Of a DNA stretch of 59,335 bases, positions 11,866-57,818 are shown in pieces. The position numbers and the translations under genes are program-made. The stretch is taken from positions 1 through 59,335 of the IMG/VR virus record IMGVR_UViG_3300029268_000019; one strand, written 5' to 3'. The notes beneath the pieces are model-generated. The model was not told the origin of the DNA. It saw nothing but the letters and a program-made list of their open reading frames with translations, and ran no database searches. Each line of letters opens with the position of its first letter. Within the stretch, counting starts at the first letter, position 1. The stretch is from a virus (Duplodnaviria > Caudoviricetes).

Positions 11866-12059
11866 AAAAATTCAAAAAATGGTGGTTTAATTTAACACAT
11901 GTTAAATGTAATTACTGTAATGAACATATTGAACAATATTATGACGCTTGTCTTTTCCCAATAGAGAATTGGAAAGGAAATATAATTTGTAAAGATTGTA
12001 TAAAGAAAGAATCCAAATTGTCAAAAAACGAAACCATCATTATATATGAGAAAAATTAA
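11862..12059 (+). CDS. Small Zn-binding hypothetical protein
   Basis: CNYC...CKDC; fills gap between coaE and prs. Confidence 0.5.
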   Translation: MKKFKKWWFNLTHVKCNYCNEHIEQYYDACLFPIENWKGNIICKDCIKKESKLSKNETIIIYEKN

Positions 12060-14145: not shown

Positions 14146-14171
14146 AAAAGGTGGTATTCCCACCTTTTTTT
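14146..14171. terminator. Bidirectional intrinsic terminator
   Basis: AAAAGGTGG-tattc-CCACCTTTT stem-loop region between convergent genes. Confidence 0.8.
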
Positions 14172-18574: not shown

Positions 18575-19036
18575 ATGAAAAAATTTGAATTATTAAGAAT
18601 TAACGATGTTTTGATGAAATCAGTCAATTATAAAAGTCACGAATTTGCTTACGCAATCTATAAGAATAAACAAAAAGTAGATGAAATTTTAATAGAAGTT
18701 GATTTTATGAATGATATTGATCCTGAATATGTTGAATATGAAAATAAAAGAATAGAATTGTGTAAAACCACATCTAAAAAGGATCCAACTGGTAGAGAAA
18801 TTGTTAAAGATGGTCGTTTTGAAATTGGTGATGTAGAAATATTCAAGAATGGAATGGATGAGTTGAGAAAACAATACGAACCATTTATTCAAAAAAGGGA
18901 TGAACAAATAAATCGTTTCAATATTATTATGCAACAAGAAGTTGAGATGGATTTCGTGAAAGTAGATAAGAAGGATTTACCTGTTGAAATAACAACAGCT
19001 ACTGAAATGTTTGAATACGGATTTATGATTTCCTAA
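18575..19036 (+). CDS. Hypothetical protein
   Basis: Late-like promoter 18546-18555. Confidence 0.6.
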   Translation: MKKFELLRINDVLMKSVNYKSHEFAYAIYKNKQKVDEILIEVDFMNDIDPEYVEYENKRIELCKTTSKKDPTGREIVKDGRFEIGDVEIFKNGMDELRKQYEPFIQKRDEQINRFNIIMQQEVEMDFVKVDKKDLPVEITTATEMFEYGFMIS

Positions 19037-19599
19037 TCAATTTCTTCAATTGATGGATTTAAATCTTTAAGAACTTTATTTATTTCTTCACTTCTCATTA
19101 TTTTCTTAAATGAGTTGTCTTGATTTTGTAGATTTTGTAGAGTCCAGTCGTTTCCACCGTTAGTTGTATTATAAATATAATTCTTATTTTTATATTTTAT
19201 TTCTATTTTTTTATTGGTTAATAAATCATAAAAATTTTTCATATCAGAATTAACACTATATAATTCAATTGGTTTCCATTTATCGTTTTCTCTTAATTGA
19301 ATGAAAACATATTTGGGTTTTTCCAATTCACTTTGTTTATCTTTAAATATAAGGAAATACCTGACATTTAATGAATTCTTCAAAAATGTTTCATATTCTT
19401 TTGTACTTTCCAATTCTCCTTTTTTGAATTCTTTTAATTTGTCATTAAAAGTCTTATCATCATATAAATCTTCAATATATTTGAAATCATCGGTATTTAC
19501 ACCAAAGATATTAGATTCCTTCTTTTTTGCACCGATACTGTCCAATAATGTTTTATCGTTGATAATTTTTTCAAATAAGAATTGGCTGTAATTATTCAT
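19033..19599 (-). CDS. Hypothetical protein with capsid-targeting-like N-terminus
   Basis: Starts MNNYSQFLFE. Confidence 0.55.
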   Translation of the reverse strand: MNNYSQFLFEKIINDKTLLDSIGAKKKESNIFGVNTDDFKYIEDLYDDKTFNDKLKEFKKGELESTKEYETFLKNSLNVRYFLIFKDKQSELEKPKYVFIQLRENDKWKPIELYSVNSDMKNFYDLLTNKKIEIKYKNKNYIYNTTNGGNDWTLQNLQNQDNSFKKIMRSEEINKVLKDLNPSIEEID

Positions 19600-19942
19600 T
19601 ATTTAAATTCAATATTTTTTCAACTTCTTCTAATGCCTCTATTAGACCTGCAACACTCCAATTTTGTCCAAAATCAATAGAAATCTCATCAGACATTCTA
19701 CCATTGCCACCAAAACCTTCTTTACCTAAAAGAGTACCAACATACCATTGTCCCGGTGTTCCACGCCATTCAGAAAGTAATTGTTCTACTTTCAATACAG
19801 ATTTTAATGGATTTTCAGTATTAACTTTTAAAACCCATCTGTAATCGTATTTTGAATTTTCCGCATAACAAATTGAATCTAAAACAATTTTTTGAGTTTC
19901 ATTTTCATTTAAGAAATCGTTATAATTTGATATATGTTTCAT
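19592..19942 (-). CDS. Hypothetical protein with capsid-targeting-like N-terminus
   Basis: Starts MKHISNYNDFLNE. Confidence 0.55.
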   Translation of the reverse strand: MKHISNYNDFLNENETQKIVLDSICYAENSKYDYRWVLKVNTENPLKSVLKVEQLLSEWRGTPGQWYVGTLLGKEGFGGNGRMSDEISIDFGQNWSVAGLIEALEEVEKILNLNNE

Positions 19943-24800: not shown

Positions 24801-25438
24801 AACAAAGTAACTTTAGATTTGTCAAATTTATATTCAACAAACATTGAATCAATGACAACTATCATCGGGACTTTTAAATGTTCGATTAAAAATTGAACTT
24901 TTTCACTTTTCATAATATGTTTATTTGGTTGTTTCAATTCTATTGTTACATCCTTTTTTCATATCCTTTGGTAAATCTTTCATTTGCCATTCATCCAACC
25001 ATAAAACTTTACCACATTTTTTACACACCCAACCAGTTAAGTGTTGTTTCTTAATAATTGTTTCGTTATTTAACGAATGTTTTTCTGTAATTTCAACATC
25101 ATCGATTACTGGTTTTTCCATATCGAAATCGTGATTGTTACTTCCGAATAAATTCATAATATTAATTTTTAAATTGTGTAATTCTTACGTGTTTCTTTTA
25201 TTTGTTTTTTAGTTAGATCAGAAACTATTTCAAAATAATTTGAAAATTCATTAAAATTCATAAAAGTTTTATAACTATAATTCCTTTCATCCATAACAAA
25301 TATCCAAGAATGATATTCATCCGGTTTTACAAAATATTCAACTCTATAAAAATTATTTAATTTCCAATCTCTATTGTTTGAACTAAATTTATCATCAATA
25401 CATTTACAATAAAATTCTTTTTTCTTTCCTGTTATCAT
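21822..25438 (-). other. Cluster of about 11 small co-oriented hypothetical genes
   Basis: Abutting minus-strand ORFs of 78-172 aa, typical phage accessory region. Confidence 0.6.
24147..24665 (-). CDS. PGDYG-like protein
   Basis: IDTLEG...GDGAVL and ADIGDFIC...DVWIVKRKIFINTY duplicated module. Confidence 0.45.
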   Translation of the reverse strand: MKRIKVEEITNWKVAKKTKNIKAKPLFSVMVDRSVTSKFLIDTLEGKEPLGDGAVLCIGESNDVWQQMPKKLLAKYQLIEIDKDGWMVFEPRPDNSVNCIEITRLIEMNDVHTFVESDNEFYIIGQWGEQTSEGQIQRADIGDFICQNRDDKSDVWIVKRKIFINTYNVISQ

Positions 25439-26433
25439 AATAAATATTTTTTAACTGTATCTGGATCTAATTTCATTAAATTTCTAATAGCTGAACTACT
25501 GATGTGCTCATATTGTTTATCACAAAATATGTTTATTATTTTAATATCTGGTTTCATATCCTGTAAATATTGAAATTGTGTCATTTCATATTGTAAATCT
25601 GTTGAATTACGGAGTCCTCTAATAAGAGTGGTGTCGTAACCCAATTTTTCCATGAACGTTGTAAGGAACCCATCAAAATGTTCAATTTGATGATATTTTA
25701 ATATTCTTGGTAATTCGTATTCGTTTTTGGATTTTTCGGGATTTGTTCCTCTAGCAATAATAACTTTGTCGAATATTTTTTCGGCTTTTTCAAGAATATT
25801 ATAGTGACCTTTGTGAAAAGGTCCAAAAGTTCCGGCATAAACACCGATATTTGGTGTCCAATTCAAAATGTATTCAATAACATATTTTACATTTTTATTT
25901 ATATCAATGTATTGATTAAGAAATTCTATTATCTTAACTTTCCATTTTAAAACATCTGTGAATTGTTGTTCTTTAAATAACAATTTTGTATTTCTTAATA
26001 TTTCGGTAAAACTACCATAATACAAATTATATCTGTCATATTCCTTAATAAATTTTCCAGAAAGGGGTGATTGTGGTCCATTTTGGGTATCCATAATACA
26101 ACAACAAACATCTTCAAAACAATTTCTAACCATTTTATTCATGTAATAACCAACGGAATTACTTTCATTGGTGTTAAAATATGGTCTTTCTGGATTATAA
26201 ATTAAATTAGGTTCGTAAATTATATCATGGAATATAATAGTAAGAAATAATTTATCATCATCCCATTCATCATTTTGTATTAATCTTTCGATAAGTTCGT
26301 TTAAATGATTCATTCCATGATAAAAACGATGGGGTTCACTCCATCTTTTGAAAATATCATCAACATCATCATTCGAATTAATTCCTAAACTTATAAGTCT
26401 ATTTCTGATTTTATTCTTTACTTCGTCTGTCAT
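25435..26433 (-). CDS. coaD: HD-domain / phosphopantetheine adenylyltransferase fusion
   Basis: EPHRFYH...FHDIIY; then YAGTFGPFHKGH, LIRGLRNSTDLQYE, HISSSAIR. Confidence 0.8.
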   Translation of the reverse strand: MTDEVKNKIRNRLISLGINSNDDVDDIFKRWSEPHRFYHGMNHLNELIERLIQNDEWDDDKLFLTIIFHDIIYEPNLIYNPERPYFNTNESNSVGYYMNKMVRNCFEDVCCCIMDTQNGPQSPLSGKFIKEYDRYNLYYGSFTEILRNTKLLFKEQQFTDVLKWKVKIIEFLNQYIDINKNVKYVIEYILNWTPNIGVYAGTFGPFHKGHYNILEKAEKIFDKVIIARGTNPEKSKNEYELPRILKYHQIEHFDGFLTTFMEKLGYDTTLIRGLRNSTDLQYEMTQFQYLQDMKPDIKIINIFCDKQYEHISSSAIRNLMKLDPDTVKKYLL

Positions 26434-28599: not shown

Positions 28600-29151
28600 A
28601 TGAATAAAATTGACAAATTCAAAGAATTTAAAAAGAAGTATCAATATATTTCCAAACATAATAAATTTGTAAAAAAATGTGGATTTGATTCAACCATTTT
28701 AGATATTAAAGTGATACCGATTGTAACGATATATAAGTTTTTTAAAAATCTCATCGTTAGAGATAATACACAATTAAGTGATGATAACCTTATTTTATTA
28801 ATCATTTATATTTTAGCTGACAAGTTTAAATTAGACTTTAAAAAGACAAATTTGTTACATGACAATCTGGAACACGAAATTCCAAACTTTAAAATTCTCA
28901 AAAAGAGATTTTCTCTGTCACTTGACAATTTGTTGATTATAAGTAATATAGTATATAAGGATATTGATGTTATTAATAATTTCGATAAATTTTTGAATTT
29001 AGTTGATATATATAAAATCATAGACGGTGTAAATTTATTCTCAACAGAGCACAATATTGGTCTTAAAGAGTTTTCATTTATTATATACAATAAAAAAGAA
29101 AATGTTTTAAAAAATATTATTAAATATTTAAAAATAAATAATTATCAATGA
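28600..29151 (+). CDS. Hypothetical late protein
   Basis: Late promoter 28566-28575. Confidence 0.55.
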   Translation: MNKIDKFKEFKKKYQYISKHNKFVKKCGFDSTILDIKVIPIVTIYKFFKNLIVRDNTQLSDDNLILLIIYILADKFKLDFKKTNLLHDNLEHEIPNFKILKKRFSLSLDNLLIISNIVYKDIDVINNFDKFLNLVDIYKIIDGVNLFSTEHNIGLKEFSFIIYNKKENVLKNIIKYLKINNYQ

Positions 29152-30826: not shown

Positions 30827-31099
30827 ATGTATTTGATAACGGATTTTAAACTATTTGAGAATAAGATGTTTGGTGTTAATGATTTAGATTACATTGATAG
30901 TTTTACCGAAATTTTTAATGTGTTTTCACAAATGAAAGATTTCAAACTCATAGATGAAAATGGTAAATTAATAGTTGACATTGATTCCATAGGTACAAAA
31001 GTACCAGAATTTGATGATATGTTTGATACTGAAGATGAATACTATGAAATGTTATTTATTGTCAAAGACATAATAGATAAATATTACAAAAAAATATAA
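30827..31099 (+). CDS. Small acidic protein with capsid-targeting-like N-terminus
   Basis: MYLITDFKLFE; late promoter 30795-30804. Confidence 0.55.
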   Translation: MYLITDFKLFENKMFGVNDLDYIDSFTEIFNVFSQMKDFKLIDENGKLIVDIDSIGTKVPEFDDMFDTEDEYYEMLFIVKDIIDKYYKKI

Positions 31100-31663: not shown

Positions 31664-32005
31664 ATGATACTTAATTATAACGATTTTCTTAAAGAAGATA
31701 GAAACTTTAATGATCTTCGATATAGTAACATGGAACAAGAATTTGAACCATCTGTTACTGTATTACAAAAATCGTATTATGAAGAATTGGATAAATTATA
31801 TCATTCTAATATTCAAAAATATAGATTGATATTGGATATATTAAAATCAAATAAGGAAGTGAATGATAGAATTGGTAAAAAAACACCTTTTTCTTTTTTC
31901 AAAAGTCTAATAAATCTACCAGAAAATAGATTAAGATTGATTTTAAAGACATGGAAAGAATTGAAAGAAGATGATTGGTATTTACCAGAAGTTAAAAAGA
32001 AATAA
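31664..32005 (+). CDS. Protein with capsid-targeting-like N-terminus
   Basis: MILNYNDFLKE. Confidence 0.55.
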   Translation: MILNYNDFLKEDRNFNDLRYSNMEQEFEPSVTVLQKSYYEELDKLYHSNIQKYRLILDILKSNKEVNDRIGKKTPFSFFKSLINLPENRLRLILKTWKELKEDDWYLPEVKKK

Positions 32006-32012
32006 ATTAATT

Positions 32013-32390
32013 ATGAAAAAATTTAAAGATTTTATTTTGGAATCAACCGATACTGATGATAGAGGAGAAATGACAAGTGATCGTTATCTAAAAGTAAGAC
32101 GATTTGAATTTAAATTTAATGGTGTCATTGATAAAAATGGTTTCGTAAAAAATTTATCCGATGATTTATTGAAAATTAAAGAGAAATTAGGAATAGAAAT
32201 AAATTTTAATCCAAATGATGTAGTATATAATTATTTTGATCATCAATATAATACATCACATGGAAAAATAATGAAAGGTTCTAGTGCTGAAGTTAAATTA
32301 GATACAAGAGATCTTAAATTGAAAGATTTATGGGCTGTACAAGAAATACTTGAAAGAGTTCGTTATTTTTCGGTTTCATTTGAAAAATAA
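32013..32390 (+). CDS. Protein with capsid-targeting-like N-terminus (start moved)
   Basis: MKKFKDFILE. Confidence 0.55.
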   Translation: MKKFKDFILESTDTDDRGEMTSDRYLKVRRFEFKFNGVIDKNGFVKNLSDDLLKIKEKLGIEINFNPNDVVYNYFDHQYNTSHGKIMKGSSAEVKLDTRDLKLKDLWAVQEILERVRYFSVSFEK

Positions 32391-32938
32391 ATAGATCCAT
32401 CAACTTCATTTCCAAATACATCCCAATTATCTCTTTTATTTCTAGCAAACAATTCAAGTTTGTCACCGTTTGTAACCTTTTCTATAAGATTATAAGTTTC
32501 AATAGGTTTTTTAGAATGTGAATCTCTTCTAGACATTATAATATTTGGGGATCTCAAGTTCGGTGGAATTTTAAATTTTCCTTTTGTTGCAAATAGAATA
32601 TGTTCGGTTGAACCACGAAAATAAAATCCCATTCCATTGTTTATTGGTTTACCAGAATTATCAATTTTAACCCAAGTTATCATTGTTTGGTATTTGAAAC
32701 CCCAAGATTTGACAACTTCAAAACCCAATTGTATTTTTGGATTTGTAACCCATAAAAATAAACATGAATCATCTTTGGATATTTCATTTATAGGTAATGA
32801 ACAAATATCTTCGATACTCATTGTTTGGTAATGACTTTGTGGATTTCCACCACGATGTTCCTTTTTCCTTTCTTTCATTTTGCCATAATCCCAAGGTGGG
32901 TCGGCATAAATAACATCATATTTTTTATTTTGAATCAT
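32363..32938 (-). CDS. MT-A70 family adenine methyltransferase
   Basis: YDVIYADPPW, LFLWVTN, HSKKP, KLELFAR, WDVFGNE. Confidence 0.9.
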   Translation of the reverse strand: MIQNKKYDVIYADPPWDYGKMKERKKEHRGGNPQSHYQTMSIEDICSLPINEISKDDSCLFLWVTNPKIQLGFEVVKSWGFKYQTMITWVKIDNSGKPINNGMGFYFRGSTEHILFATKGKFKIPPNLRSPNIIMSRRDSHSKKPIETYNLIEKVTNGDKLELFARNKRDNWDVFGNEVDGSIYFSNETEK

Positions 32939-37257: not shown

Positions 37258-37935
37258 TTAATTACACCAATCAAATCTTAATTCACCATTTGGGAATAAA
37301 GTTTGTTTAGTTTCATCATATATTGGTTCTGGTAAATTAAATAGTGGAGATAAGTCTGTATCCCTTTTATCATTATTATCCCTAATTACCCAATAGGATA
37401 CGTTATTTAATCCAATCTCGTCAAGATGACATATCATATCTTTTAATTGATCTGGGGTGTTTATACCATCTTTAAACAAGGGAATATTTATTCTGATGAT
37501 TAGATTAGTAATCTTTTCGATTTCTTTAATTTCTTCCATTGTTGGTGGAAGTTCTTTTGAATGTAAAGTTGATTGAGATATTTTTGGATTTATATTATGA
37601 ACAGTTACATATAAGTGTGTAAGTCCCATATTTTTCCAATCTTTCAATAATTCGATAGAATCTTTTAATAAAATCCCATTCGTATATAATTTTATTTTTC
37701 TTATTTTAAATTCTCTTATTGTATGTAAAGTTCTATATATATTACTTGGTTGTAACAATGGTTCACCCCCACCGGAAATAGATAATTCTTCAATGGTATC
37801 TTTATTATCTTTTACAATTGATTTAAACAAATCAAATTTGAAAGAATTTTGTGTTCTGTGTTGTTTTCCCGCACAGAATGAACAACTGGCATTACAACCT
37901 TTATTACATACCAGTACACCTAACTTTTTTATCAT
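37258..37935 (-). CDS. Radical SAM protein
   Basis: CNASCSFC, ISGGGEP, YTNG. Confidence 0.85.
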   Translation of the reverse strand: MIKKLGVLVCNKGCNASCSFCAGKQHRTQNSFKFDLFKSIVKDNKDTIEELSISGGGEPLLQPSNIYRTLHTIREFKIRKIKLYTNGILLKDSIELLKDWKNMGLTHLYVTVHNINPKISQSTLHSKELPPTMEEIKEIEKITNLIIRINIPLFKDGINTPDQLKDMICHLDEIGLNNVSYWVIRDNNDKRDTDLSPLFNLPEPIYDETKQTLFPNGELRFDWCN

Positions 37936-37941
37936 TTTTAT

Positions 37942-38107
37942 AAATTAGAAAAATATGACTTTTTTACTTTAATACGAAACATGATCGTGATGAAAACGCT
38001 GCCAAAAATATAAAAAATTTTGGGTTGAGTAACCAACCCAGCATCACTCAAAGTGAATGGTTACATTGTGCTTGTGATGTAGAAACTACTAATTAGTAAT
38101 GGTTCAC
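37942..38107 (+). mobile_element. Internally deleted IS200/IS605 (TnpB) remnant
   Basis: Encodes KHDRDENAAKNIK (TnpB C-terminus); follows TTTAT and ends GTTCAC. Confidence 0.75.
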
Positions 38108-38982
38108 CCCAGTTGACATATAGCACCTTCTTTAATCCATGAATAATAAACTCCACCATCTTGTAAAACAACTAATTGCCTTACGAAATCTTTTTTTGGA
38201 TCGTGTTTTGTTACATAATCAGTAAGACGAACAATCTTTCCATTCAAATCATATACACCACCACCCCATTCATGTGAATGACATAATTTTCCATTTTTGT
38301 GTAACCATCTCCATATTTTATATTGATTCAATTTTGATGGTGTAAATTCATTTCTTGTACCATCTGGATTTCCAACTGTCCAAGCTGTAATATTATTATA
38401 TCCATAATCAAATAAAGTATTTAGTGTATGTTGAAATAGAAAAGGGGTATCAATTCCACCTTTTCTCAATAATATAGTAGCCCTTACACCTAGTCCATGT
38501 TTTTTTATATTATTACGAATTGTTTTGAATGATGGGTATTCTCTAATACCATAAATTTTAGCTTGTTCCCATTCAAAATAATGGTGAATAGAAATCACAA
38601 TGTTTGTTAATCCTAATTCTTTCCATATTGGTATCCATTTATCACAAAATGTTTCATCAGCAAAAAGAATACCATTGGTGAACATATTTACGTTAGGAAA
38701 ATATGCACCATCCTTAACACATTTTTGATATACTTTTAGAGCTTCTGTTACAGATTCCGGGTCACAAGTTGGTTCACCAGCGGATGTTAAAGATAAACTC
38801 CAACCACCATATTTTGATGATAATTTGATAGCGAATTCAAGATTTTTTATGTTTGTTTGATGAAGAATATCATCTCTTTTACCTCTTCCGAGGGTTTTTC
38901 CTGAACAGAATGGACAATTACCATTACATGAACCATTACCAATTACTGCGGATACGCTATAGATTTTTTCTATACATGCCAT
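38104..38982 (-). CDS. Radical SAM protein
   Basis: CNGNCPFC, TSAGEP, FTNG. Confidence 0.85.
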   Translation of the reverse strand: MACIEKIYSVSAVIGNGSCNGNCPFCSGKTLGRGKRDDILHQTNIKNLEFAIKLSSKYGGWSLSLTSAGEPTCDPESVTEALKVYQKCVKDGAYFPNVNMFTNGILFADETFCDKWIPIWKELGLTNIVISIHHYFEWEQAKIYGIREYPSFKTIRNNIKKHGLGVRATILLRKGGIDTPFLFQHTLNTLFDYGYNNITAWTVGNPDGTRNEFTPSKLNQYKIWRWLHKNGKLCHSHEWGGGVYDLNGKIVRLTDYVTKHDPKKDFVRQLVVLQDGGVYYSWIKEGAICQLG

Positions 38983-39027: not shown

Positions 39028-39990
39028 TTAGGACTTTGAATAAACTTTTTTATAATATTCATCGGAATTGAATATATCTACTATTTCAACGGTTCTATTT
39101 TTTGGTTGTACTATCACTTCCAATTCCCCCGGAAAAACCAATTCACTATTTAAGAATTTATGATTTTCTACCCAATTTGTATCTAATAATATTTCTGATG
39201 AATCGAACTTGTGTTTTAGAACAATACCTATTTCATTTTCTTTCATTGTTCTCATATCATCCAAACCTTTTTTACCACTAGCAAAAGATCTAGCTACACT
39301 TGGGTCTAAAGACCAACTTGGTTTATTACATTTAATAGTATCACCTATTTTAATTTCACCATTTTTAATTTTAACACAAATATCTTTGTTGAAATAATCT
39401 TCATAATCTGGAGCATAACATTTCAAATTTAAACCTCTATATAAAATTAAAGAATCAACAACGGGCATTAAATCACCCTTTAATCCTAGAAATTTATTCA
39501 TTTTAACCCACCATCCTACAGTTCCTCTTTGATATTTAGACCACCAATTTCTTATATCATAATAATCTGTATTTTGTAATGTATAATGAATATCCTTTTT
39601 TGTTTCTCTTTCAAATCTTCTAGAAAATAATTCTTCTGGTATTCTAGAAATAGGATAATTTTTGGTATCATATTTTTTTAAAGGTTGATTATCATAATTT
39701 AACCATTCATCTCTTGTCTTTGGAACTTTAAAAAAAGAAAATAATTCATTGTAACCATTTTTTGTCATTTTCCATTTTCCATTAACGAATTCAGCGTAAC
39801 CATTTTCATTTAAATATTTAACAGCTTCACCGAAAGTGACACCCATTCGATTATCTTTTATCCAATTTTTTTCATCCATTCCATCATTATCTTCATAAAT
39901 ATATAACATTTCCAACCAAGCCATTATTCTGACAAGTTTTTCATCGTAATCATTATTTTCTTTTATGTATTGAATAAATTTTGTTATCAT
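39028..39990 (-). CDS. ADP-ribosyltransferase-like protein (R-S-ExE) with capsid-targeting-like N-terminus
   Basis: MITKFIQYIKE; LILYRGL...PSWSLDPSVARSFA...GELEVIV. Confidence 0.7.
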   Translation of the reverse strand: MITKFIQYIKENNDYDEKLVRIMAWLEMLYIYEDNDGMDEKNWIKDNRMGVTFGEAVKYLNENGYAEFVNGKWKMTKNGYNELFSFFKVPKTRDEWLNYDNQPLKKYDTKNYPISRIPEELFSRRFERETKKDIHYTLQNTDYYDIRNWWSKYQRGTVGWWVKMNKFLGLKGDLMPVVDSLILYRGLNLKCYAPDYEDYFNKDICVKIKNGEIKIGDTIKCNKPSWSLDPSVARSFASGKKGLDDMRTMKENEIGIVLKHKFDSSEILLDTNWVENHKFLNSELVFPGELEVIVQPKNRTVEIVDIFNSDEYYKKVYSKS

Positions 39991-40436
39991 TCGGTTGTTA
40001 TTCCATCAAATTTTTCTTTACTTTTGGAAGCTTCAGATTTTGTTCCGAATGTTATTCCGTCTTTATGATTGGGTGGTGTATATATTGTATATATCTTTAA
40101 ATCTGATTTTCCTGTATTTATTATATTATGTGTACTACCACATGGGATTATTAAAACATCACCATTACCTACTATGTATTCATTTTCATTAATAATACAT
40201 TTACCTTCTCCAGCTTCAAATCTAAAAAATTGATCAACATTTGCATGTGTTTCTTTACCGATATCTTCACCGGGTTTTAGACTCATCAAAACAAGTTGCA
40301 TATGTTTACTTGTATATAATACTTTTCTAAAGTTATCATTTTTCAAAGTATCATTTTCTATGTTACTTGTGAAACCTTTTTGTTCCTGTTTCTTTACATT
40401 AAAATTTTCAAATGTTTTTAGATTTTTCATTTTCAT
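39987..40436 (-). CDS. Cupin domain protein with capsid-targeting-like N-terminus
   Basis: MKNLKTFENF; FRKVLYT..QLVLMSLKPGEDIGKETH..DQFF...HNIINTG. Confidence 0.85.
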   Translation of the reverse strand: MKMKNLKTFENFNVKKQEQKGFTSNIENDTLKNDNFRKVLYTSKHMQLVLMSLKPGEDIGKETHANVDQFFRFEAGEGKCIINENEYIVGNGDVLIIPCGSTHNIINTGKSDLKIYTIYTPPNHKDGITFGTKSEASKSKEKFDGITTE

Positions 40437-40455: not shown

Positions 40456-41682
40456 TTACTCTGAAATTTTTAGTTTACCATTTCTGATTACATAATCCAA
40501 ATGTATGTGTGCACTATTAGACTGTGTTCCATTATAGAATTGAATTTCATCTGGAAATAAAATATCAGCCTTTTTATGAATCCCCTCACCTTCAGTTTTA
40601 ACCACTTTCCCTTTACCGAATCTGGTATGTGTGACATTAGTATCCGGAATAATCTGATTAATGATATCGAGAATTTCAGAATCGGTATATTCTTTCTGTT
40701 TCTGTTGTGTGTCGTTATTTTTTAATTCATTATCTTTTTTTAATTTTTGTTGTACTTTTTTTCCACTAAAAACATTTGCTACATTTTTTACTCTTTCAAA
40801 ATCATCAAATTTACTGAAAACATTTGTCACAATATCACCCCACAAACTACGAACATAAGATACATCGACATCAGATATATAAGACACCATTTCTGGTGTC
40901 ACTCTTCCACCATTGTATTCTTTTTTCAATTCAAGATATATATCTTTCAAAGAATTTAATAATTCACCGGATTTTTCCGCTTTCTTAATATGATGAGTAG
41001 TTTCATCATTGGTTACATCCAATTTTTGTTTTTTTAAACCTTTTTTTCTTATATTACCATACATATCATAATGAACATTAAGAGTTTCTATCTCACTTAT
41101 AGACTCTTTTGAAATAGTCCCCCTTGGAATTCCAAATATTGTTATTGATACATAATAAGATGGTGATGTTTTAGATTGGGGATAATTTAATCTTCCTTCT
41201 AATTGTATAGTTTCACAATTATTATTTCTCCAAACAAAATTTTTGTACCATTTAGATCCACTACTACATTGAAATAAAGCGATAATTATCATTCCTTTAT
41301 TACCCTCAATTGATGCTTTCTCTATGAATTTTCTTTGTGACCTATCATATGGTGATGCTAACCATCCAAATTTACCATATTTATGCCATTCTTGTTTCAA
41401 ACTATTTTCTCTTAAAGGAGGATCTATCCCAATAGATCCATTTAAAGTGAACCCTTTTGGGAATTTTATATTATTTTCATTACAACACAAGTCTACAGTT
41501 TGACTATCTTCCCATCCTATTTCAGGTCTTAATATATCTTTCAATTTATTTATAAACCATAATGGAGTAGGATAATCGTTAACATCCGATGTTTCTCTTT
41601 TAACTATATTACTTTTTGTTAAAATTTTCCCTTTAGTATATAAACTAGAATCAAAATCTTCAAATAAAATTAAATTATTCAT
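40456..41682 (-). CDS. Phage Dam-like N6-adenine methyltransferase fold fused to UvrD/PcrA-type Tudor domain
   Basis: DYPTPLWF, VDLCC, SLKQEW, WLASPY, FIEKA, GRLNY; C-terminal VTHTRFGKGKVVKTEGEG..KKADILF. Confidence 0.65.
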   Translation of the reverse strand: MNNLILFEDFDSSLYTKGKILTKSNIVKRETSDVNDYPTPLWFINKLKDILRPEIGWEDSQTVDLCCNENNIKFPKGFTLNGSIGIDPPLRENSLKQEWHKYGKFGWLASPYDRSQRKFIEKASIEGNKGMIIIALFQCSSGSKWYKNFVWRNNNCETIQLEGRLNYPQSKTSPSYYVSITIFGIPRGTISKESISEIETLNVHYDMYGNIRKKGLKKQKLDVTNDETTHHIKKAEKSGELLNSLKDIYLELKKEYNGGRVTPEMVSYISDVDVSYVRSLWGDIVTNVFSKFDDFERVKNVANVFSGKKVQQKLKKDNELKNNDTQQKQKEYTDSEILDIINQIIPDTNVTHTRFGKGKVVKTEGEGIHKKADILFPDEIQFYNGTQSNSAHIHLDYVIRNGKLKISE

Positions 41683-41767: not shown

Positions 41768-43513
41768 ATGGATCAAGTAAATTCATTCGTATCATTAGCC
41801 GAAAAAGTAACCGTTTTGAATAAGAATTATGTGGAAGTTCTTACAAAGATTAACGATTTGGTTGCTTCAGAACAATCAACAGTTAAAATAAATTATGATA
41901 ATAACGGTGTAACCAATTCATATTCACTACCAACCGTAGGAAGTTTAAAAACACAAATTGATGTTTTAAATCAAAATATTAAACGTTTATCATCAATAGA
42001 TGGTTTCACTTTTATAAAGGAAGGTCAGAGTATTAAAAAAATTATGACAAGTGATTTGAATAGAGAACCAGTCCCTATTCAAAATGTAAATAGTGTTTCA
42101 ACTTTTTCACCGATAAATAATAGTTTTTTTGAATCACTAATGAATCCTATGCTTGCTGTTACATTGGATTTAACAAATAAAATAACTCATAATGTTGACA
42201 AAATTTTATCTCGTAGATATATTATTGAATTTGAAAAAAATAATGATGGATCACTAACAGCGAATGGTACTTTATCATACAATGATTTTGTTTCAAATTG
42301 GTTAAATAGAAATGATATTAATATCAATGATTTTGAAGCTTGGTTATATAATCCATCAAATATTGGTATTATGGTAGATGTTGTATCACCATATGATGAA
42401 CAAATATTTGATTTAAAAGTAAAAGAATTAAAATATTATGGAACTTTTACTGTTATAAAAACAGAAATTGATGATATAAATAATAAAATTTGGTATCATC
42501 TTACAGATTTAAAATATTATGGAAAAGATGGAACAATTAACACCTTAACGACTGGTGACGAATTAATTATAAACGCTTTAAATAGTTCAACCAGATACAA
42601 AGTTGTTGAAGTAAATACCGATTATTCCAATAACAAAGTAAGATTGGAATTGATTGAAGGGTATGATCCTATTACTGTTGGTACTAATGTTTTGAAATAT
42701 TACAGTAGTATCGCTGATGATAAAAAAGTTCAGATTACAGTAGGTTTTGATGAATTCAATATAGTATTTGTAAAACCGATAAATACTGATAATAATGTTA
42801 TTGGTTCTTTATGGTCAAAGGGAATGTCTTATTTCACAAATGATTTAGTTTTAGATACGGATAGTAATATAAATCTAGCAAATTATTATATTGAAACTGT
42901 TTATGATTATGGTGAAGTTTTGAAAGATATGGTTTTAAAGAAGATACCAACAAGATACGGTTCAAAACCAAACATACCTTATCTACAAACTGATAATTTT
43001 AAGGTGGTTCAAATAAATAAACATTTAACTGATGGTGTAGATCAAGATTTGGTAAGAAAATTACATGCTGAAAAAACAACCATAAAAACTAAAATTTCTC
43101 AAATACAAAATGCTATACAAGACAGATTGAAAAATCTAAATTCAAGTAATTTATCACAATCGGAAAAGATTTCTATTAACAATGAATTAAACAAATTAAA
43201 ATTGGATTTAGATTTACAAACAAAAAATCTATCTACCGTCATTTCTCAATTAACGACAATAAATAAAACGACAAATGCGGTTGAACCAAAATATCGTGTT
43301 AGAGGTTTTTGGAACATACCAGATCCAATTATATCAAATAAAACAGAACCACAACATGTTGTTCAATTCAGACTTCAATATCGTTACGCTACAAAGGGTG
43401 GTAATTCAAATCCAACAGAGGGATACAAATTTTCACCAACAAAAGCACCAACTGTTAATGTAACAGCATCAAATGCAACAAATACAGCAACAAACACAGC
43501 TAGTCAAGCTTAA
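41768..43513 (+). CDS. Large structural (baseplate-like) protein, N-terminal part
   Basis: Late promoter 41739-41748; Asn/Thr-rich beta protein with coiled coil; ends in half an Fn3-like domain. Confidence 0.6.
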   Translation: MDQVNSFVSLAEKVTVLNKNYVEVLTKINDLVASEQSTVKINYDNNGVTNSYSLPTVGSLKTQIDVLNQNIKRLSSIDGFTFIKEGQSIKKIMTSDLNREPVPIQNVNSVSTFSPINNSFFESLMNPMLAVTLDLTNKITHNVDKILSRRYIIEFEKNNDGSLTANGTLSYNDFVSNWLNRNDININDFEAWLYNPSNIGIMVDVVSPYDEQIFDLKVKELKYYGTFTVIKTEIDDINNKIWYHLTDLKYYGKDGTINTLTTGDELIINALNSSTRYKVVEVNTDYSNNKVRLELIEGYDPITVGTNVLKYYSSIADDKKVQITVGFDEFNIVFVKPINTDNNVIGSLWSKGMSYFTNDLVLDTDSNINLANYYIETVYDYGEVLKDMVLKKIPTRYGSKPNIPYLQTDNFKVVQINKHLTDGVDQDLVRKLHAEKTTIKTKISQIQNAIQDRLKNLNSSNLSQSEKISINNELNKLKLDLDLQTKNLSTVISQLTTINKTTNAVEPKYRVRGFWNIPDPIISNKTEPQHVVQFRLQYRYATKGGNSNPTEGYKFSPTKAPTVNVTASNATNTATNTASQA

Positions 43514-43531: not shown

Positions 43532-44983
43532 ATGGCACAACAACAAAATAGTCAAGTCATTCAAAGTACTCAAGTTTCAACAGTAAGTGAAAGTCCAAGT
43601 AACCAAACAATTACTGCTCAATTTTCAAATTGGGTAAGTGTATTAAGTGATGTTCGTAAACGTTACTGGGATGAAAAAGCTGGTGTTTGGTACTGGAAAA
43701 TAGAAGATGTTCAGGATGCTGATACACCAAATATAAATCAACTTGATATTCCTATTCAACCAAATGAAAGAGTTGAAATAAGAGTATCCGCAATATCAGA
43801 AGTTGGTTGGCCTGATTCTATTTTAGAATCAGAATGGAGTAATGTATTAACTGTTGATTTTCCAGATGATATAAACGATGTTTTAAATGAAAATGGATTT
43901 ATTCTTCAGGAAGCATCACAAGATCAAAGTGTTGTTCAAATGGATTCGACATTAAATACAAGGGGTGTTTATAAACATATTGAAGATTCTTTCTATATCA
44001 ACAACACATACTATGGTCATACTGATAAGGACATAGCTGTTAGTTTTAAAGGTGATATGAGTAATACTTTAAATTTATTTGAATATTTAAGTAGTTTAAC
44101 GGATAGAATTAAATCATTGGAAGAAATCATTAATAAGGTTAAAGGTGAACTTCATATTTATTTATATAATAATGAAACTTTGGTTAAGGAAATCTTAAAC
44201 AATACAACAACACAATTAAAAATAGAATGTGAGGATTTTGTAGTCCCAATTACTGGAAAAACAAGAACTTATGTAAATAGTTTATATGTTATAGATGATT
44301 ACACTATATCATTATCAAACGTTGCACAACAAGGTGATTTGGGTTTATTATCAAATAGGAATTTCACTTCTGGTGGAACAAATATTTTTTATACTGATAA
44401 CTTAAATCAAGCATTATTAATAGATTACAATGATGATTTATATACTCAACAAAACAACCAATTTATTTGGTTCATGGATACCGATCAACAAACAAATATA
44501 TATACCGGTATTACTTATGCACCACATCTCGTATTTGGACTGAATACACCAAATTATAATTTAGGAGCTACTGGAAATACAATTGGAATTTACAATTCTT
44601 GGTCAAATATAAATTCTGTTTTTCCAATAACAGCTGTAGCAAATACAAATTTGTTAGCTACAGTTCACCCCTATTTTTCCGATACAACAAATGTTATAGA
44701 AACCGGTCAAGAAAAAGTAAAAAAAGTAGCAGCCAAAAGTAATTTCGTTATTGGAATAAAAATATTTTTCAAATTAAGTGGAAATATTAGTAATGGTGGA
44801 CAATTTTCTGTTGCTGGAAATGGACATGTTAATAAAACAAGAAAAGTTAAAGTATATTTTGAAACTGATGGTGGTCAAACATATCAATTTGCATTGGTAT
44901 TTAATCTATCAAATTTCAGATTATATTTCAAAGGTGGTACATCAACACAATCACAAGTTGTTAATAATACCCCAGCTCTTTAA
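43532..44983 (+). CDS. Structural protein, apparent continuation of the upstream ORF
   Basis: N-terminal region contains second half of an Fn3-like domain. Confidence 0.6.
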   Translation: MAQQQNSQVIQSTQVSTVSESPSNQTITAQFSNWVSVLSDVRKRYWDEKAGVWYWKIEDVQDADTPNINQLDIPIQPNERVEIRVSAISEVGWPDSILESEWSNVLTVDFPDDINDVLNENGFILQEASQDQSVVQMDSTLNTRGVYKHIEDSFYINNTYYGHTDKDIAVSFKGDMSNTLNLFEYLSSLTDRIKSLEEIINKVKGELHIYLYNNETLVKEILNNTTTQLKIECEDFVVPITGKTRTYVNSLYVIDDYTISLSNVAQQGDLGLLSNRNFTSGGTNIFYTDNLNQALLIDYNDDLYTQQNNQFIWFMDTDQQTNIYTGITYAPHLVFGLNTPNYNLGATGNTIGIYNSWSNINSVFPITAVANTNLLATVHPYFSDTTNVIETGQEKVKKVAAKSNFVIGIKIFFKLSGNISNGGQFSVAGNGHVNKTRKVKVYFETDGGQTYQFALVFNLSNFRLYFKGGTSTQSQVVNNTPAL

Positions 44984-50701: not shown

Positions 50702-51757
50702 ATGAAATTCGTTATAGATGATACTGTTACAAAGATAATACTAAAAGAGTCAACAAGAGAAGAATTCAATCAATTGAAATTATATTTAAACAGACACTTA
50801 AAAAATTATGTGTTTATGGCTAAATATAAATTGACTAAATTCTCAGCTAATCCTTGGGACGGTAAGTATGAACAATTTCATGGTGGTTATATAGATTTCG
50901 GTTTATTACATGAATGTTACAAATGTTGTAAAGAATATGGTTATCCATTCGAAGTTTTAAATAAAGAAAAAATTCCTATTAATAGAGATATTAAAAAGGA
51001 AGATATTGAAAATTTCTGTAAAGAATTTTACAAAGATCACAAAGATGAACATGATATAACCAAATCATTTGTCCCATATGAACATCAAGAAGAATCCATT
51101 TTCAGAATATTGAAACATCAGTACGGTAGAATTGAAGTCGCTACCGCTGGTGGAAAATCTTTAATATTTGGATCCCTAATATTTTATTATTTAACTCATA
51201 TCAATCCTGATGCAAAATTCTTATTGATTGTACCAACTATGGATTTAGTTACACAATTCTATAATGATATCAATAATTATAATTATGGTTATCATAATGA
51301 AAATAAAAATGTTATAAATATCAGAATGGATGAAATTATGAGTGATAAACCAAGAAAATATCATGGTGACGAACCAAATATTTATATTGGAACATATCAG
51401 AGTTTAGTTAAATGGCCAGTTGAATGGTTTCATCAATTTGATGTCGTTTGTTGTGACGAATGTTTACATCCTGATACATTAATAACAATGTCAGATGGTA
51501 AGAAAAAAAAGATTAAAGATATTAAAATTGGTGATAAAATTTTCACTATTAATGAAAAAACATTAAAAAAAGAAATTAGAGAAGTTGATTATGTATATAA
51601 AAATTTAAGCAAAAATCAACAAATGTTTGAACTAGAAATGGAAGATGGAAAAAAATTAAAAATAACAGGAAACCATGAAGTAATTTTATCAAATGGAAAA
51701 AGAAAAAGAATTGATAAATTATCAACAAATGATGAAATTTTCGATTTTAATATTTAA
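50702..51757 (+). CDS. uvsW: UvsW-like SF2 helicase N-extein fused to split intein N-fragment
   Basis: ATAGGKS, LLIVPT, IGTYQSL, VVCCDE then CLHPDTLI...ITGNH intein blocks. Confidence 0.9.
   Translation: MKFVIDDTVTKIILKESTREEFNQLKLYLNRHLKNYVFMAKYKLTKFSANPWDGKYEQFHGGYIDFGLLHECYKCCKEYGYPFEVLNKEKIPINRDIKKEDIENFCKEFYKDHKDEHDITKSFVPYEHQEESIFRILKHQYGRIEVATAGGKSLIFGSLIFYYLTHINPDAKFLLIVPTMDLVTQFYNDINNYNYGYHNENKNVINIRMDEIMSDKPRKYHGDEPNIYIGTYQSLVKWPVEWFHQFDVVCCDECLHPDTLITMSDGKKKKIKDIKIGDKIFTINEKTLKKEIREVDYVYKNLSKNQQMFELEMEDGKKLKITGNHEVILSNGKRKRIDKLSTNDEIFDFNI
51461..51754 (+). mobile_element. Split intein N-fragment (98 aa)
   Basis: Block A CLHPDTLITM, block B KITGNHEV. Confidence 0.9.
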
Positions 51758-51801: not shown

Positions 51802-52827
51802 ATGTTAACCAAATCTTGTCCTTATTGTAAAAGTATATATTTGAGATATAAATATAAAAATTCTAAAAATAGTTTCGTTTGTTTAAATTGTTTAAAATCA
51901 TTCAAAAACAAAGAAATAATATATTTAGATATTAAAGAAAATGAATTGTTTACTATTTTAAATGAATCATCAAAAGAAGTAGATAAAAAAAGAATTTTCG
52001 ATTTTCTTAAAGCAAATAATTCAAAATTTTTATGTCAAAAAAATTTAGATAAAAGTATTACTGATTTTCTTAATAATTGTTATATCAAAATTGAAATTAA
52101 AAAATCTTTAACATATAAAAATATTTTTGATTTTTTAAATAATACTAAATATAATGATTGTCATTGTCATAATCTTGAATGTAATAGAGATACAAAATTT
52201 TATGGATTTTCAAAAAGACATCCAAGAGGATATTCAATTTGTTGTGATGATAAAAAATGTTTATATCTTTTAAGATCCACAAAACAAAAAGGTGAAAATA
52301 ATACTTGTCACAAAATGACAAAAGAATCTTTAGAATCAATGAAAATAAAGAATTCTATTATAATGAAAGAAAAAATAAAAAATAAAGAATTTATACCAAA
52401 TGCAATTAATTCTTGGAGAAATGAAAAATATAGTTTAATTTTAAATGGTAAAAAAATAAATTTTAGATCATCTTGGGAGGCTTTTTATAATTTAGTTAAT
52501 AAAGATTTAATTTATGAAAATACTGTCATACCTTATGAATATAAAAAAGTCAAACACAATTATATTGTTGACTTTTCAGATCATATTAATAAAATTTTAT
52601 ATGAAATAAAACCAAAATCGGATATAAATAGGCAAAGAACAAAAAATAAAACAAAATCAGCTAAAAAATGGTGTAAAGAAAATAATTACAAATTTATAAT
52701 CATAAACGAAGATTGGTTTTATGAAAATTATAAAAAACATAAACATTTATTAGAAAATATTGATATGATAAATAAAGAAAGATTACAAAAAAATTTAAGA
52801 AGATTCGATGAAAATAAAATCTATTAA
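51802..52827 (+). CDS. Free-standing TnsA-like PD-(D/E)xK endonuclease between intein halves
   Basis: FRSSWE...YE..IPY...NYIVDF...LYEIKP; Cys-rich N-terminus; own late promoter 51754-51763. Confidence 0.75.
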   Translation: MLTKSCPYCKSIYLRYKYKNSKNSFVCLNCLKSFKNKEIIYLDIKENELFTILNESSKEVDKKRIFDFLKANNSKFLCQKNLDKSITDFLNNCYIKIEIKKSLTYKNIFDFLNNTKYNDCHCHNLECNRDTKFYGFSKRHPRGYSICCDDKKCLYLLRSTKQKGENNTCHKMTKESLESMKIKNSIIMKEKIKNKEFIPNAINSWRNEKYSLILNGKKINFRSSWEAFYNLVNKDLIYENTVIPYEYKKVKHNYIVDFSDHINKILYEIKPKSDINRQRTKNKTKSAKKWCKENNYKFIIINEDWFYENYKKHKHLLENIDMINKERLQKNLRRFDENKIY

Positions 52828-53752
52828 TAAAATTGAATATAATGGTGATGTTTACAATTTAAGAATTAAAGAAATAAATTCTGATGATATAAATAACCAT
52901 AATTATTTTGCAAATGATTTTTCTGTGTCTAATTGTCATAAAGCGAAAGGAAACTCACTAAGAACTATATTGAAAAATACGTTTGGTCATGCCAAAATTC
53001 GTTTTGGTATGAGTGGTACATATCCAAATGATGATACCGCTGAATTACTAATGATAGAAGCTGTTACAGGTCCATTATTATTAAACATCAGAGCTAAAAA
53101 ATTAATGGAATTAGGTATCATCACACCTTGTAAAATTAAGGGAATTATACTAAATCATGGTGATTATAACTTCGCATCGAATATATTTTCAATAAAGAGA
53201 AGTGGTAATGGGAGAAAAGCTTGGGAATTAGAAAAGAAATTCGCACAGAATTCATTACCCAGAAAAATATTTATTGGAAAATTGGTGAATAAATTTAAAA
53301 ACAATTCATTAGTATTATTCCAAAATATTGATTACGGAAAGGATTTATATAATTACATCAGAGATAATATACCAAATAAAGATGTTTATTACATTGATGG
53401 AAATACACCGAAAGAAAAAAGAGGAATTATTAAAAAACAAATGGAAGATACATCTGGAAATGTGAAAATATTAGTTGCTTCCTTCGGAACATCAGCGACT
53501 GGTATAAATATTAAAGCTGTTGTTAATTTAGTTTTTGCTGATTCATTTAAATCAGATTCATTGGTAACACAAGCAATTGGTAGAATATTAAGATTACATA
53601 GTGAAAAAGAATTATCTATTATTTTCGATTTGGTTGATCAATTCCATCAAGATTTTAAGGGAACACTGTATAATCACTTCCAAATTAGGAAAAAAGAAAT
53701 TTATACCAAAAGGGAATATCCTTATGAAGAATTGAAATTTAGTTTAGTATAA
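52808..53752 (+). CDS. uvsW: Split intein C-fragment (42 aa) fused to UvsW helicase C-extein
   Basis: MKIKSI...VYNL...HNYFANDFSVSN/C then HKAKG, GMSGT, SATGINI, QAIGRILR. Confidence 0.9.
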   Translation: MKIKSINKIEYNGDVYNLRIKEINSDDINNHNYFANDFSVSNCHKAKGNSLRTILKNTFGHAKIRFGMSGTYPNDDTAELLMIEAVTGPLLLNIRAKKLMELGIITPCKIKGIILNHGDYNFASNIFSIKRSGNGRKAWELEKKFAQNSLPRKIFIGKLVNKFKNNSLVLFQNIDYGKDLYNYIRDNIPNKDVYYIDGNTPKEKRGIIKKQMEDTSGNVKILVASFGTSATGINIKAVVNLVFADSFKSDSLVTQAIGRILRLHSEKELSIIFDLVDQFHQDFKGTLYNHFQIRKKEIYTKREYPYEELKFSLV

Positions 53753-57428: not shown

Positions 57429-57818
57429 ATGAAGAAATTTAACGAATTTGTAAACGAAAATTATAAAGAAACCAAAAACAATATTGATGATGTCTTTAAT
57501 GTTCAATCAACATTTATTGATGAAGTCTTTGATCAATTGGTTCAAATAGTGTGTGATGTAAATCATATAAGTGAAAAAGATTTCAAAAATTGGGATCAAA
57601 CCAAAGGTTATGTTGAAAAATATTTTGACAATAATCCAGAAATATTACAAATAATTGATGATTTCAAAGGTAAAAGATATCAATTATGTGCGGAATTTTT
57701 ATATGAAAAATTATTTGGAAAGGATCAAGAATTAAATATTTCATTTAGTAAAGACACCAATAAAATTGATACACGATTACCTGAACCAGAAGATAATGTT
57801 GATTTGATTGTTCAATAA
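57429..57818 (+). CDS. Protein with capsid-targeting-like N-terminus
   Basis: MKKFNEFVNE; AAATATATA upstream. Confidence 0.6.
   Translation: MKKFNEFVNENYKETKNNIDDVFNVQSTFIDEVFDQLVQIVCDVNHISEKDFKNWDQTKGYVEKYFDNNPEILQIIDDFKGKRYQLCAEFLYEKLFGKDQELNISFSKDTNKIDTRLPEPEDNVDLIVQ

Follow-up and report, generated by a model that had tools for sequence, protein, structure and literature searches.

The stretch of viral DNA analysed here (IMG/VR record IMGVR_UViG_3300029268_000019, positions 1 to 59,335; hereafter the window, 59,335 nucleotides) encodes on its minus strand a protein, P0001, that joins a domain resembling the Dam methyltransferases of phages to a Tudor domain of the UvrD/PcrA type. The open reading frame (ORF) covers 40456..41682, starts with ATG and specifies 408 amino acids (aa) plus a stop codon. 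These are exactly the positions given in the original prediction, made from the DNA letters alone, and its reading of W-L-A-S-P-Y where phage Dams have W-x-NPPY is borne out. The anatomy is settled (table 1): a leader, a Dam fold without the motif IV asparagine, a module resembling helix-turn-helix (HTH) domains, and a UvrD-type Tudor domain. All three folded parts (Dam-like, helical and Tudor) are confidently modelled, and an architecture of 408-416 aa recurs on independent contigs. An exhaustive HMMER search of 1.84 billion representative proteins returned 77 proteins at E ≤ 1e-3, and both halves, Dam-like and Tudor, occurred together in the query's own cluster only; fused and split forms were sought only by this length-free search of representatives. 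At 90% clustering there is a single other full-length relative, P0002, which is 86% identical. The architecture is real and rare, in keeping with the earlier remark that it was not a recognised one. Membership of the families PF05869 (Dam) and PF21196 (PcrA_UvrD_tudor) is by homology and fold, a defining functional residue of each family being absent.

Table 1. Features of the P0001 gene, of its minus-strand run and of other parts of the window, with examples of ORFs bearing similar leaders.
Feature	Position	Strand	Basis or remark
Leader and basic disordered stretch, residues 1-33	41584..41682	-	Predicted local distance difference test (pLDDT) of the model; leader pattern count
Dam-family (PF05869-like) class-I amino-methyltransferase fold, Asn-less clade, residues 34-205	41068..41583	-	Model; fold searches
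Motif IV W-L-A-S-P-Y, residues 107-112	41347..41364	-	Ala109 for Asn/Asp; Pro111 and Tyr112 retained
Gln138, end of strand beta5, in place of the family Pro	41269..41271	-	Alignment A4; DSSP
Helical HTH-like module, residues 234-287 (ELKKEYNG..VTPE..SYISDVD)	40822..40983	-	Model; A2 conservation
Linker, residues 288-340, K/N/Q-rich, mostly disordered	40663..40821	-	Model
PcrA/UvrD-type Tudor domain, residues 341-408	40459..40662	-	Foldseek; VIA
Cupin	39987-40436	-	Same run; leader-bearing
320-aa ORF	39028-39990	-	Same run; leader-bearing
Radical-SAM ORF	38104-38982	-	Same run
Radical-SAM ORF	37258-37935	-	Same run
Third radical-SAM ORF	7472-8401	+	
Leader-bearing ORF	2600-3232	-	
Leader-bearing ORF	14170-15111	-	
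Leader-bearing ORF	19033-19599	-	
Leader-bearing ORF	19592-19942	-	
Leader-bearing ORF	28600-29151	+	
Leader-bearing ORF	30827-31099	+	
Leader-bearing ORF	31664-32005	+	
Leader-bearing ORF	57429-57818	+	
MT-A70 methyltransferase	32363-32938		Canonical, with DPPW
PRPP synthetase	12046-12987	+	
Cytidylyltransferase-like ORF	25435-26433	-	NMN adenylyltransferase-type
Apparently split DNA helicase	50702-51757, 51802-52827, 52808-53752	+	
ORF matching PHROG 29329	41768-43513	+	Profile positions 9-536 of 1092
ORF matching PHROG 29329	43532-44983	+	Profile positions 543-745 of 1092

The N-terminal half was modelled as residues 1-215 on an alignment of 76 sequences (mean pLDDT 86.9, predicted template modelling score 0.83), with pLDDT values of 92-98 over residues 41-210. 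The result is a confidently modelled class-I amino-methyltransferase fold that the model and the matches below place in the phage Dam family. Its neighbours in a VIA structure comparison are PCIF1 (Z 11.2), METTL5 (9.8), M.TaqI (8.9), EcoDam (8.6) and T4 Dam (8.2), and every one of the closest solved folds is an amino-methyltransferase that bears a (D/N)PP(F/Y/W) motif; Foldseek agrees weakly with these neighbours. Among predicted viral structures (BFVD), the best match is a phage 'DNA N-6-adenine-methyltransferase' (E 8e-11). P0001 also matches PHROG_111, annotated 'DNA methyltransferase' (E 8.9e-14), the ESM Atlas gives PF05869 clusters at 0.94, and four relatives score above the PF05869 cut-off (P0016, 38.0 bits; P0018, 30.2; P0035, 29.6; P0039, 41.8). 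A profile search gave no match of P0001 to TIGR01712, and a sequence search of solved structures turned up no PF05869 member. A tblastn search of GenBank phages gave 15 records; their matches are less than 30% identical and lie in the Dam part only, and none of the records has at least 80% of the query.

We then asked how the motif IV residue is distributed among relatives. The alignment held 76 sequences, namely the N-terminal fragment from the window and 75 matches; P0005, P0006, P0007 and P0010, which match in the C-terminus only, were left out. At query position 109, where 74 of the 76 rows have a residue, 49 have asparagine, 20 alanine and two methionine, with glycine, cysteine and serine once each. 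A maximum-likelihood tree (quick IQ-TREE search on 72 rows, after dropping 4 rows shorter than 110 residues) has a split with a support of 100 in the Shimodaira-Hasegawa-like approximate likelihood ratio test (SH-aLRT), which separates 22 rows without asparagine (A 18, M 2, S 1, G 1) from 50 others (N 48, C 1, A 1). The single alanine on the larger side belongs to P0039, on a long branch. None of the 22 has an N, a D or an SPPY form in motif IV. The near relatives of P0001 all lack the asparagine, and WLASPY is identical in P0002, P0003, P0004 and P0008. Branches within the Asn-less group measure 0.15-1.35 changes per site, and because they are so long the loss must be old and the fold must have been retained since. 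The original prediction would have taken the change for simple decay or a sequencing error had all homologues carried NPPY, which they do not. On the sequences compared, ASPY is neither; it is an old trait of a phage-only clade. Patterns from alignment A4 of this clade found no relative in the genome contigs of 185,579 bacterial and archaeal species, and hence no prophage copy. Scans of IMG/VR gave no relative with the single protein, none with the C-terminal alignment A2, and one locus with A4.

These data bear on the simplest alternative, that a decaying Dam gene lost NPPY by chance and was fused downstream by a frameshift, or that the arrangement is an assembly or sequencing error. Such an origin could account for the related locus L011, where the Dam-like gene (866-1144) is cut to an N-terminal remnant of 92 aa. 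It could also account for a ratio of non-synonymous to synonymous substitution rates (dN/dS) of 0.63 for the whole gene (71 substitutions), obtained by the Nei-Gojobori method over 403 codons against L003, a 92%-identical copy (dS 0.087 for the whole gene, 0.05-0.14 in the Tudor and Dam-like parts). Against it stand the recurrence of the full architecture on independent contigs and of WLASPY in four other proteins, the loss of asparagine across a whole clade, the confident models of all folded parts and the dN/dS of only 0.10 (7 substitutions) in the helical module. We consider it very improbable. The dN/dS values fit a constrained helical module together with a fast-changing Tudor surface; the case for constraint on the Dam-like part comes from the deep clade, not from dN/dS.

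The loss of the asparagine is accompanied by changes in other motifs. The family segment LLPARTDTkWF has become ALFQ(S/T)N.D..W(Y/F) in the Asn-less clade, with loss of the arginine, and this change covaries with the loss of the asparagine; FPS is lost, and His100 and Cys156 are gained, along with it. In P0001 the two segments read ALFQcSsgsKWY and YYV, so that the initial statement that all flanking motifs of phage Dams are kept was too strong. What has been kept is nevertheless extensive: 90% or more of the 76 rows retain D64 (the acidic residue of motif I), N71, L95, W99, P111, K122 and G130, and the Asn-less clade retains the stacking Tyr112 as well as Trp145. The second residue of the motif varies among relatives (S, A, P, V, L or C). 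Therefore the serine of ASPY is not the point, and the motif is not the 'SPPY' of cytosine-N4 enzymes. A new residue, Gln138, replaces a proline and is invariant across the 10 closest clade members. According to DSSP, strand beta5 (132-138) ends at this glutamine, and strand beta4 (105-108) is followed directly by Ala109. In class-I methyltransferases beta4 and beta5 are adjacent and their C-terminal ends line the acceptor pocket. Because these ends adjoin in the class-I topology, a relocated amide is a reasonable hypothesis.

A relocated amide would also suit a more conventional protein, an ordinary orphan DNA adenine methyltransferase in which Gln138 does the work of the asparagine, phage or host DNA is methylated against restriction, and the HTH and Tudor parts merely aid association with DNA or the replisome. 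The solved folds closest to the domain, all amino-methyltransferases, the annotation of its PHROG_111 and BFVD neighbours as DNA methyltransferases, the likely place of Gln138 beside the motif IV loop (as strand adjacency would have it) and clade add-ons that look DNA-binding by eye all speak for such an enzyme. The chemistry speaks against it. According to passages of two papers (PMC10050889; PMC5023411), catalysis depends crucially on the residue that opens motif IV, which forms a hydrogen bond with the N6 amino group, and in one of them the M.PtoI double mutant N360A-W363A is given as severely compromised (PMC10050889); the 22-row clade has no N, D or SPPY form at all. Canonical methyltransferases are, moreover, already present in the same genomes. 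The window has an MT-A70 methyltransferase (table 1), the clade gene of locus L008 adjoins a canonical-looking methyltransferase ORF, and L005 has an EcoDam-like ORF (the last two from N-terminal motifs read by eye). Therefore the Asn-less protein is not simply the phage's Dam, and we regard an orphan adenine methyltransferase as unlikely.

The C-terminal half (residues 216-408) was modelled on a 6-row alignment (A2) with a mean pLDDT of 62, an average over two folded parts and the disordered K/N/Q-rich linker between them. The helical module has a pLDDT of about 80, and a helix starting near residue 334 together with five strands (residues 334-406) reaches 80-87; the linker falls below 50 over residues 289-329 and differs in length among relatives. 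Most of the invariant columns of A2 lie in the helical module, the best-conserved part of the protein. Its similarity to the N-terminal HTH domains of the TetR type (Z 6-6.9) is under the noise bar for helical models, and 'HTH-like' is thus a lead only, suggested by the model.

The domain that follows the linker is better placed. It carries V-T-H-T-R-F-G-K-G-K-V at residues 350-360, matches the C-terminus of the pcrA profile TIGR01073 (E 2e-5) and retrieves with phmmer the isolated UvrD C-terminal domains 7egs_B and 6yi2_A (E about 0.3). In a Foldseek search of the PDB, UvrD/PcrA Tudor domains take the first seven places (7egs_B, three chains of 9dqs, 6yi2, 5dma and 7egt_B), with target-normalised template modelling scores of 0.55-0.88 and E values of 1e-3 to 4e-2. 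In the VIA comparison with 48,161 chains only three matches reached Z ≥ 8, namely 5dma_A (Z 8.7, root-mean-square deviation (rmsd) 1.1 Å over 53 of 53 residues, 23% identity), 9dqs_A (Z 8.4) and 7egs_B (Z 8.0). CdnL, CarD and Mfd (RID) come next in the fold lists. The Tudor assignment, already made in the original prediction, is sound because UvrD/PcrA Tudor domains lead both fold searches. One further match, of the A2 profile to complement C5 in the PDB, was rejected as spurious, the alignment including other N-terminal domains.

The helical module and the Tudor domain, with the linker between them hereafter the cassette, are found in several settings. They stand behind the Dam-like domain in P0001 and P0002 and behind an unrelated N-terminal domain in P0005 and P0006; P0010 (186 aa) is the cassette alone, and P0007 has the helical module without the Tudor domain. 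The metagenomic proteins P0005 (445 aa) and P0006 (454 aa) have an N-terminal domain of about 300 aa with its own leader, similar to a capsid-targeting sequence (CTS), and an 'IVDD' loop. This domain belongs to no Pfam or PHROG family. BLASTP against the window's phosphoribosyl pyrophosphate (PRPP) synthetase gave no significant match (E 0.25-1.7), although one piece aligned the 'IVDD' loop, and a phosphoribosyltransferase-like nature is a lead only. Other members of the Asn-less clade bear different additions. P0004 and the L002 gene at 7515-8666 have an N-terminal helical extension, winged-helix-like by eye, and no C-terminal cassette, and P0011 (574 aa) has a C-terminal region with a D-G-Q-G-R motif, which we take to be reminiscent of ParB-type domains. 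By reading of the sequences, these add-ons look to be of the nucleic-acid type.

For the origin of the cassette, we compared the phage Tudor domain with those that end the UvrD/PcrA-type helicases of five Bacteroidota genomes (PF21196 matches, four of the five above the cut-off). Between 12 and 21 residues are identical over 51-54 aligned positions, the closest being the Tudor domain of a Bacteroidales UvrD (21 of 51, up to 41%). Phage and Bacteroidota domains have in common V-x-H-x-x-F-G-x-G-K-V, E-G-E-G-x-x-K-K-A and a terminal K-L-K-I-x-E, and the phage domain has an insertion of 16-19 residues before the fourth strand. The simplest reading of these sequences is that the Tudor domain was captured from a UvrD/PcrA helicase of the host lineage, the Bacteroidota.

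What such a domain might bind is suggested by work on the helicases. In passages of Sanders et al. 2017 (PMC5397179), the PcrA substitutions H681A, W684A, K712A and L714A each nearly abolish the pull-down of RNA polymerase (RNAP). Passages of Urrutia-Irazabal et al. 2021 (PMC8318588) describe the PcrA/UvrD Tudor domain as binding a 'TGE' beta-hairpin in the SI1 insert of RpoB, whose glutamate is essential, and report the 'TGE' motif in UvrB as well. The equivalents of PcrA H681 and W684 are retained in P0001 as H351 and F354, within V-T-H-T-R-F-G, and align to V-R-H-A-K-F-G of UvrD and to the five Bacteroidota helicase Tudors. A complex prediction of the Tudor part (alignment A2, fragment residues 118-193) with residues 1-600 of RPOB_FLAJ1 from Swiss-Prot, a stand-in host and a run without controls, scored 0.01 and 0.00 and speaks neither for binding nor against it.

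The N-terminus of P0001 may bear on how the protein reaches its target. The leader MNNLILFE ends in L-F-E (hydrophobic-x-Glu) and runs into a basic disordered stretch, and pLDDT is below 50 at residues 1-9 and 14-33. The original prediction had called the protein tagged, and a leader is indeed present, of a type that is enriched at N-termini in the window. We examined 71 ORFs, that is, 87 ORFs of at least 90 aa minus 16 overlapping or shadow ORFs removed by eye. The pattern F-x-[EDN]-[FY] occurs within the first 16 residues in 7 of them; among 957 internal stretches of 16 residues, 17 have it (P 2.7e-4). With a looser pattern the counts are 10 of the 71 ORFs and 64 of the 957 stretches (P 0.019). 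Many unrelated ORFs of the window (examples in table 1) have leaders of the form M..(K)..F.(E/D/N)(F/Y) or ...(L/I/F)-x-E that resemble the T4 CTS, and the related loci L002, L005, L009 and L011 show the same leaders. The leaders of the relatives (MKTFKEF..., e.g. at the start of P0005) also resemble the T4 CTS. The T4 protease cuts after L/I-x-E, and P1 DarB carries a methyltransferase domain. The CTS of T4 is quoted in PMC8442874, and passages of PMC9024508 describe P1 DarB as packaged through its first 30 residues and as countering restriction. Only by analogy with these proteins is it plausible that P0001 is packaged in the head and injected. No head or prohead protease gene was recognised among the scanned ORFs of the window, which is about 8% of the genome according to CheckV.

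The gene heads a minus-strand run that continues with a cupin, a 320-aa ORF and two radical-SAM ORFs, and a third radical-SAM ORF lies elsewhere in the window (table 1). The radical-SAM ORFs and the cupin could be a modification pathway. The 320-aa ORF contains Y-R-G ... S-W-S ... E-L-V-F-P-G-E-L-E, reminiscent of the R-S-E motif that ADP-ribosyltransferases, T4 Alt among them, possess. That it is an ADP-ribosyltransferase is not established: it has no match in Pfam, PHROG or PDB sequences, and the Atlas gives DRAT at only 0.81. L011 has no cupin, and there the Dam-like remnant is followed directly by the homologue of this ORF (1171-2103).

As for the host, a Por_Secre_tail ORF (type IX secretion system) in locus L002 (E 4.5e-12) and the PRPP synthetase of the window are sequence evidence for Bacteroidota. 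The best 80 bacterial relatives of this synthetase are 47-55% identical, and 79 of the 80 titles name Bacteroidota taxa. A giant eukaryotic virus as source was rejected, the early-promoter octamer of mimivirus having 26 matches for 28.9 expected. The linear IMG/VR contig, estimated by CheckV as 8% complete, implies a very large phage genome; its guanine-cytosine content is about 27% and the window has no tRNA genes. The PRPP synthetase and the cytidylyltransferase-like ORF, of the nicotinamide mononucleotide (NMN) adenylyltransferase type, are auxiliary genes of nucleotide and nicotinamide adenine dinucleotide metabolism. A DNA helicase is apparently split: between its N-terminal half (PHROG_16259) and the half with Helicase_C lies an ORF with a TnsA-like endonuclease domain, which looks like the insertion of a mobile endonuclease. 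Two consecutive ORFs match successive parts of PHROG 29329 (function not known), and therefore this gene is split here relative to other phages.

The reading that we favour, with a confidence that stops somewhat short of even, takes P0001 for an accessory effector, modular in build, that belongs to a huge Bacteroidota phage and in which a portable docking cassette of host origin carries a rebuilt base-clamping domain. The cassette, derived from a Bacteroidota UvrD/PcrA, would be a docking device that carries whatever enzyme-like domain it is joined to onto a host partner. This partner would be of the kind that UvrD/PcrA bind, be it the beta lobe of RNAP, UvrB or an altered form of that surface; the HTH-like module might add docking on DNA. 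The Dam-like domain would still clamp a flipped base and would probably bind S-adenosylmethionine (SAM). Without the asparagine, textbook N6-adenine methylation would be ruled out for it, and either Gln138 would make good the lost amide or the domain would act on a different atom or base. If the leader acts like the T4 CTS, the protein would be packed in the head and would enter the cell with the DNA.

Several observations count against this scheme. The similarity of P0001 to the Dam family, though genuine, is weak. Its match to PF05869 (E 9.4e-6, 25.8 bits, residues 91-167) is under the 28.1-bit cut-off, and that to PF21196 (E 5e-4, 20.3 bits, residues 349-378, profile positions 4-33 of 48) is below the 23.9-bit cut-off. 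That Gln138 would be close to Ala109 in space follows from the class-I strand order. The dN/dS of the Dam-like part is 0.83 (20 substitutions) and that of the Tudor part 1.16 (28 substitutions), both noisy values, and neither indicates recent strong constraint. The remnant in L011 means that the gene is accessory and dispensable. Finally, the positions of PcrA K712 and L714 (K708 in UvrD) are occupied by His/Asp394 and Asp396 in a MAFFT alignment that is uncertain after the insertion, and all five phage copies lack a lysine in that strand in the same alignment. With two of the four determinants replaced, the binding surface is therefore altered, its charge perhaps reversed, and it may have a partner that is neither RNAP nor UvrB. 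From the sequences, docking on either of these two is possible but somewhat doubtful, while docking on some host or phage partner is well more probable.

The same features can be read as those of a pseudoenzyme or decoy, in which a dead Dam fold binds DNA, a base or SAM while the Tudor cassette competes for a docking site with host UvrD/PcrA-type helicases or with defence proteins that bear Tudor domains. The motif IV asparagine, the arginine of 'PAR' and 'FPS' would then all have been lost together with catalysis. A degenerate motif IV has a precedent in METTL14, a scaffolding methyltransferase paralogue with EPPL that pairs with METTL3 (passages of PMC5023411). The existence of the cassette alone in P0010 suits a competitor, and so does the high dN/dS of the Tudor part, which, few as its sites are, would be expected at an interface with the host. 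A dead fold is harder to reconcile with the retention of Tyr112 (lost in METTL14), Pro111 and Asp64, with a new invariant Gln138 beside the pocket (a position given by strand order), and with a fold kept through the deep, long-branched clade, a pattern that suggests a maintained pocket and not a relic. We thus consider a pseudoenzyme or decoy rather unlikely.

The favoured reading, an effector docked by a portable cassette, has a bolder version. In it, an enzyme loaded into the capsid through its T4-like leader, with a pocket rebuilt by the loss of the asparagine and the gain of Gln138, makes a modification other than N6-methyladenine. After injection the Tudor domain, taken from the UvrD/PcrA helicase of the host, would park it on the machinery of transcription or excision repair, where it would modify nucleic acid or that machinery and also displace the host helicase. 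This version is quite improbable, but were it true, the HTH-Tudor cassette would be a general 'address label' by which phages deliver different enzymes to one site. A deep, phage-only branch of Dam proteins lacks the residue held essential for amino-methyl transfer while apparently keeping the base-clamping pocket, and represents either a natural relocation of an active site or a methyltransferase fold with a new chemistry or a reader role. Phages, in turn, seem to have captured the docking domain of UvrD/PcrA and to use it as a portable cassette, joined to unrelated enzyme-like domains. Should RNAP or UvrB prove to be the partner, this would be a new route by which phages address effectors to the transcription or repair machinery of the host, and the changed Lys/Leu face would show the retargeting of a docking surface.

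Comparison with known systems places each part of P0001. Like the phage Dams of PF05869 and TIGR01712, it has a small, phage-borne class-I fold, a likeness found by sequence and fold, with the same order of motifs (TP helix, D-x-C-A, N-x-K, L..W, W-x-x-x-P-Y, KA helix and GR-x-F). It differs from PF05869 members in having alanine for the asparagine of NPPY, ALFQ(S/T)N for LLPARTDT, no FPS, the added His100 and Cys156, an HTH-Tudor cassette fused to the C-terminus and a score below the Pfam cut-off. METTL14 offers a parallel: according to passages of PMC5023411, its motif IV is non-catalytic, and selection has maintained its amino-methyltransferase fold for a role that is supporting or at least not catalytic. 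The stacking aromatic is absent and the pocket occluded in METTL14, whereas P0001 keeps Tyr112; a partner methyltransferase, on the other hand, is not evident for P0001. The T4 internal proteins IPI-III and Alt and P1 DarB are effectors that are packaged in the head through N-terminal capsid-targeting signals and injected, and the leader M-x-x-L-I-L-F-E of P0001 resembles the T4 CTS.

With the Tudor domains of PcrA and UvrD (PDB 5dma, 6yi2, 7egs, 7egt and 9dqs), the C-terminal domain shares a five-strand fold (Z 8.0-8.7, rmsd 1.1-2.0 Å across the full length of the solved domain), V-x-H-x-x-F-G-x-G-K-V, a C-terminal K-L-K-I and a C-terminal site behind a disordered linker. It differs from them in that no helicase is attached, 16-19 residues are inserted and the Lys and Leu that PcrA requires for RNAP binding are replaced. 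In comparison with CarD and CdnL, the order of domains is reversed, the Tudor domain is of the UvrD and not the CarD type, and the sequence bears no similarity to that of CarD; what P0001 has in common with them is the pairing of a Tudor-type docking domain with a small helical module that possibly binds DNA.

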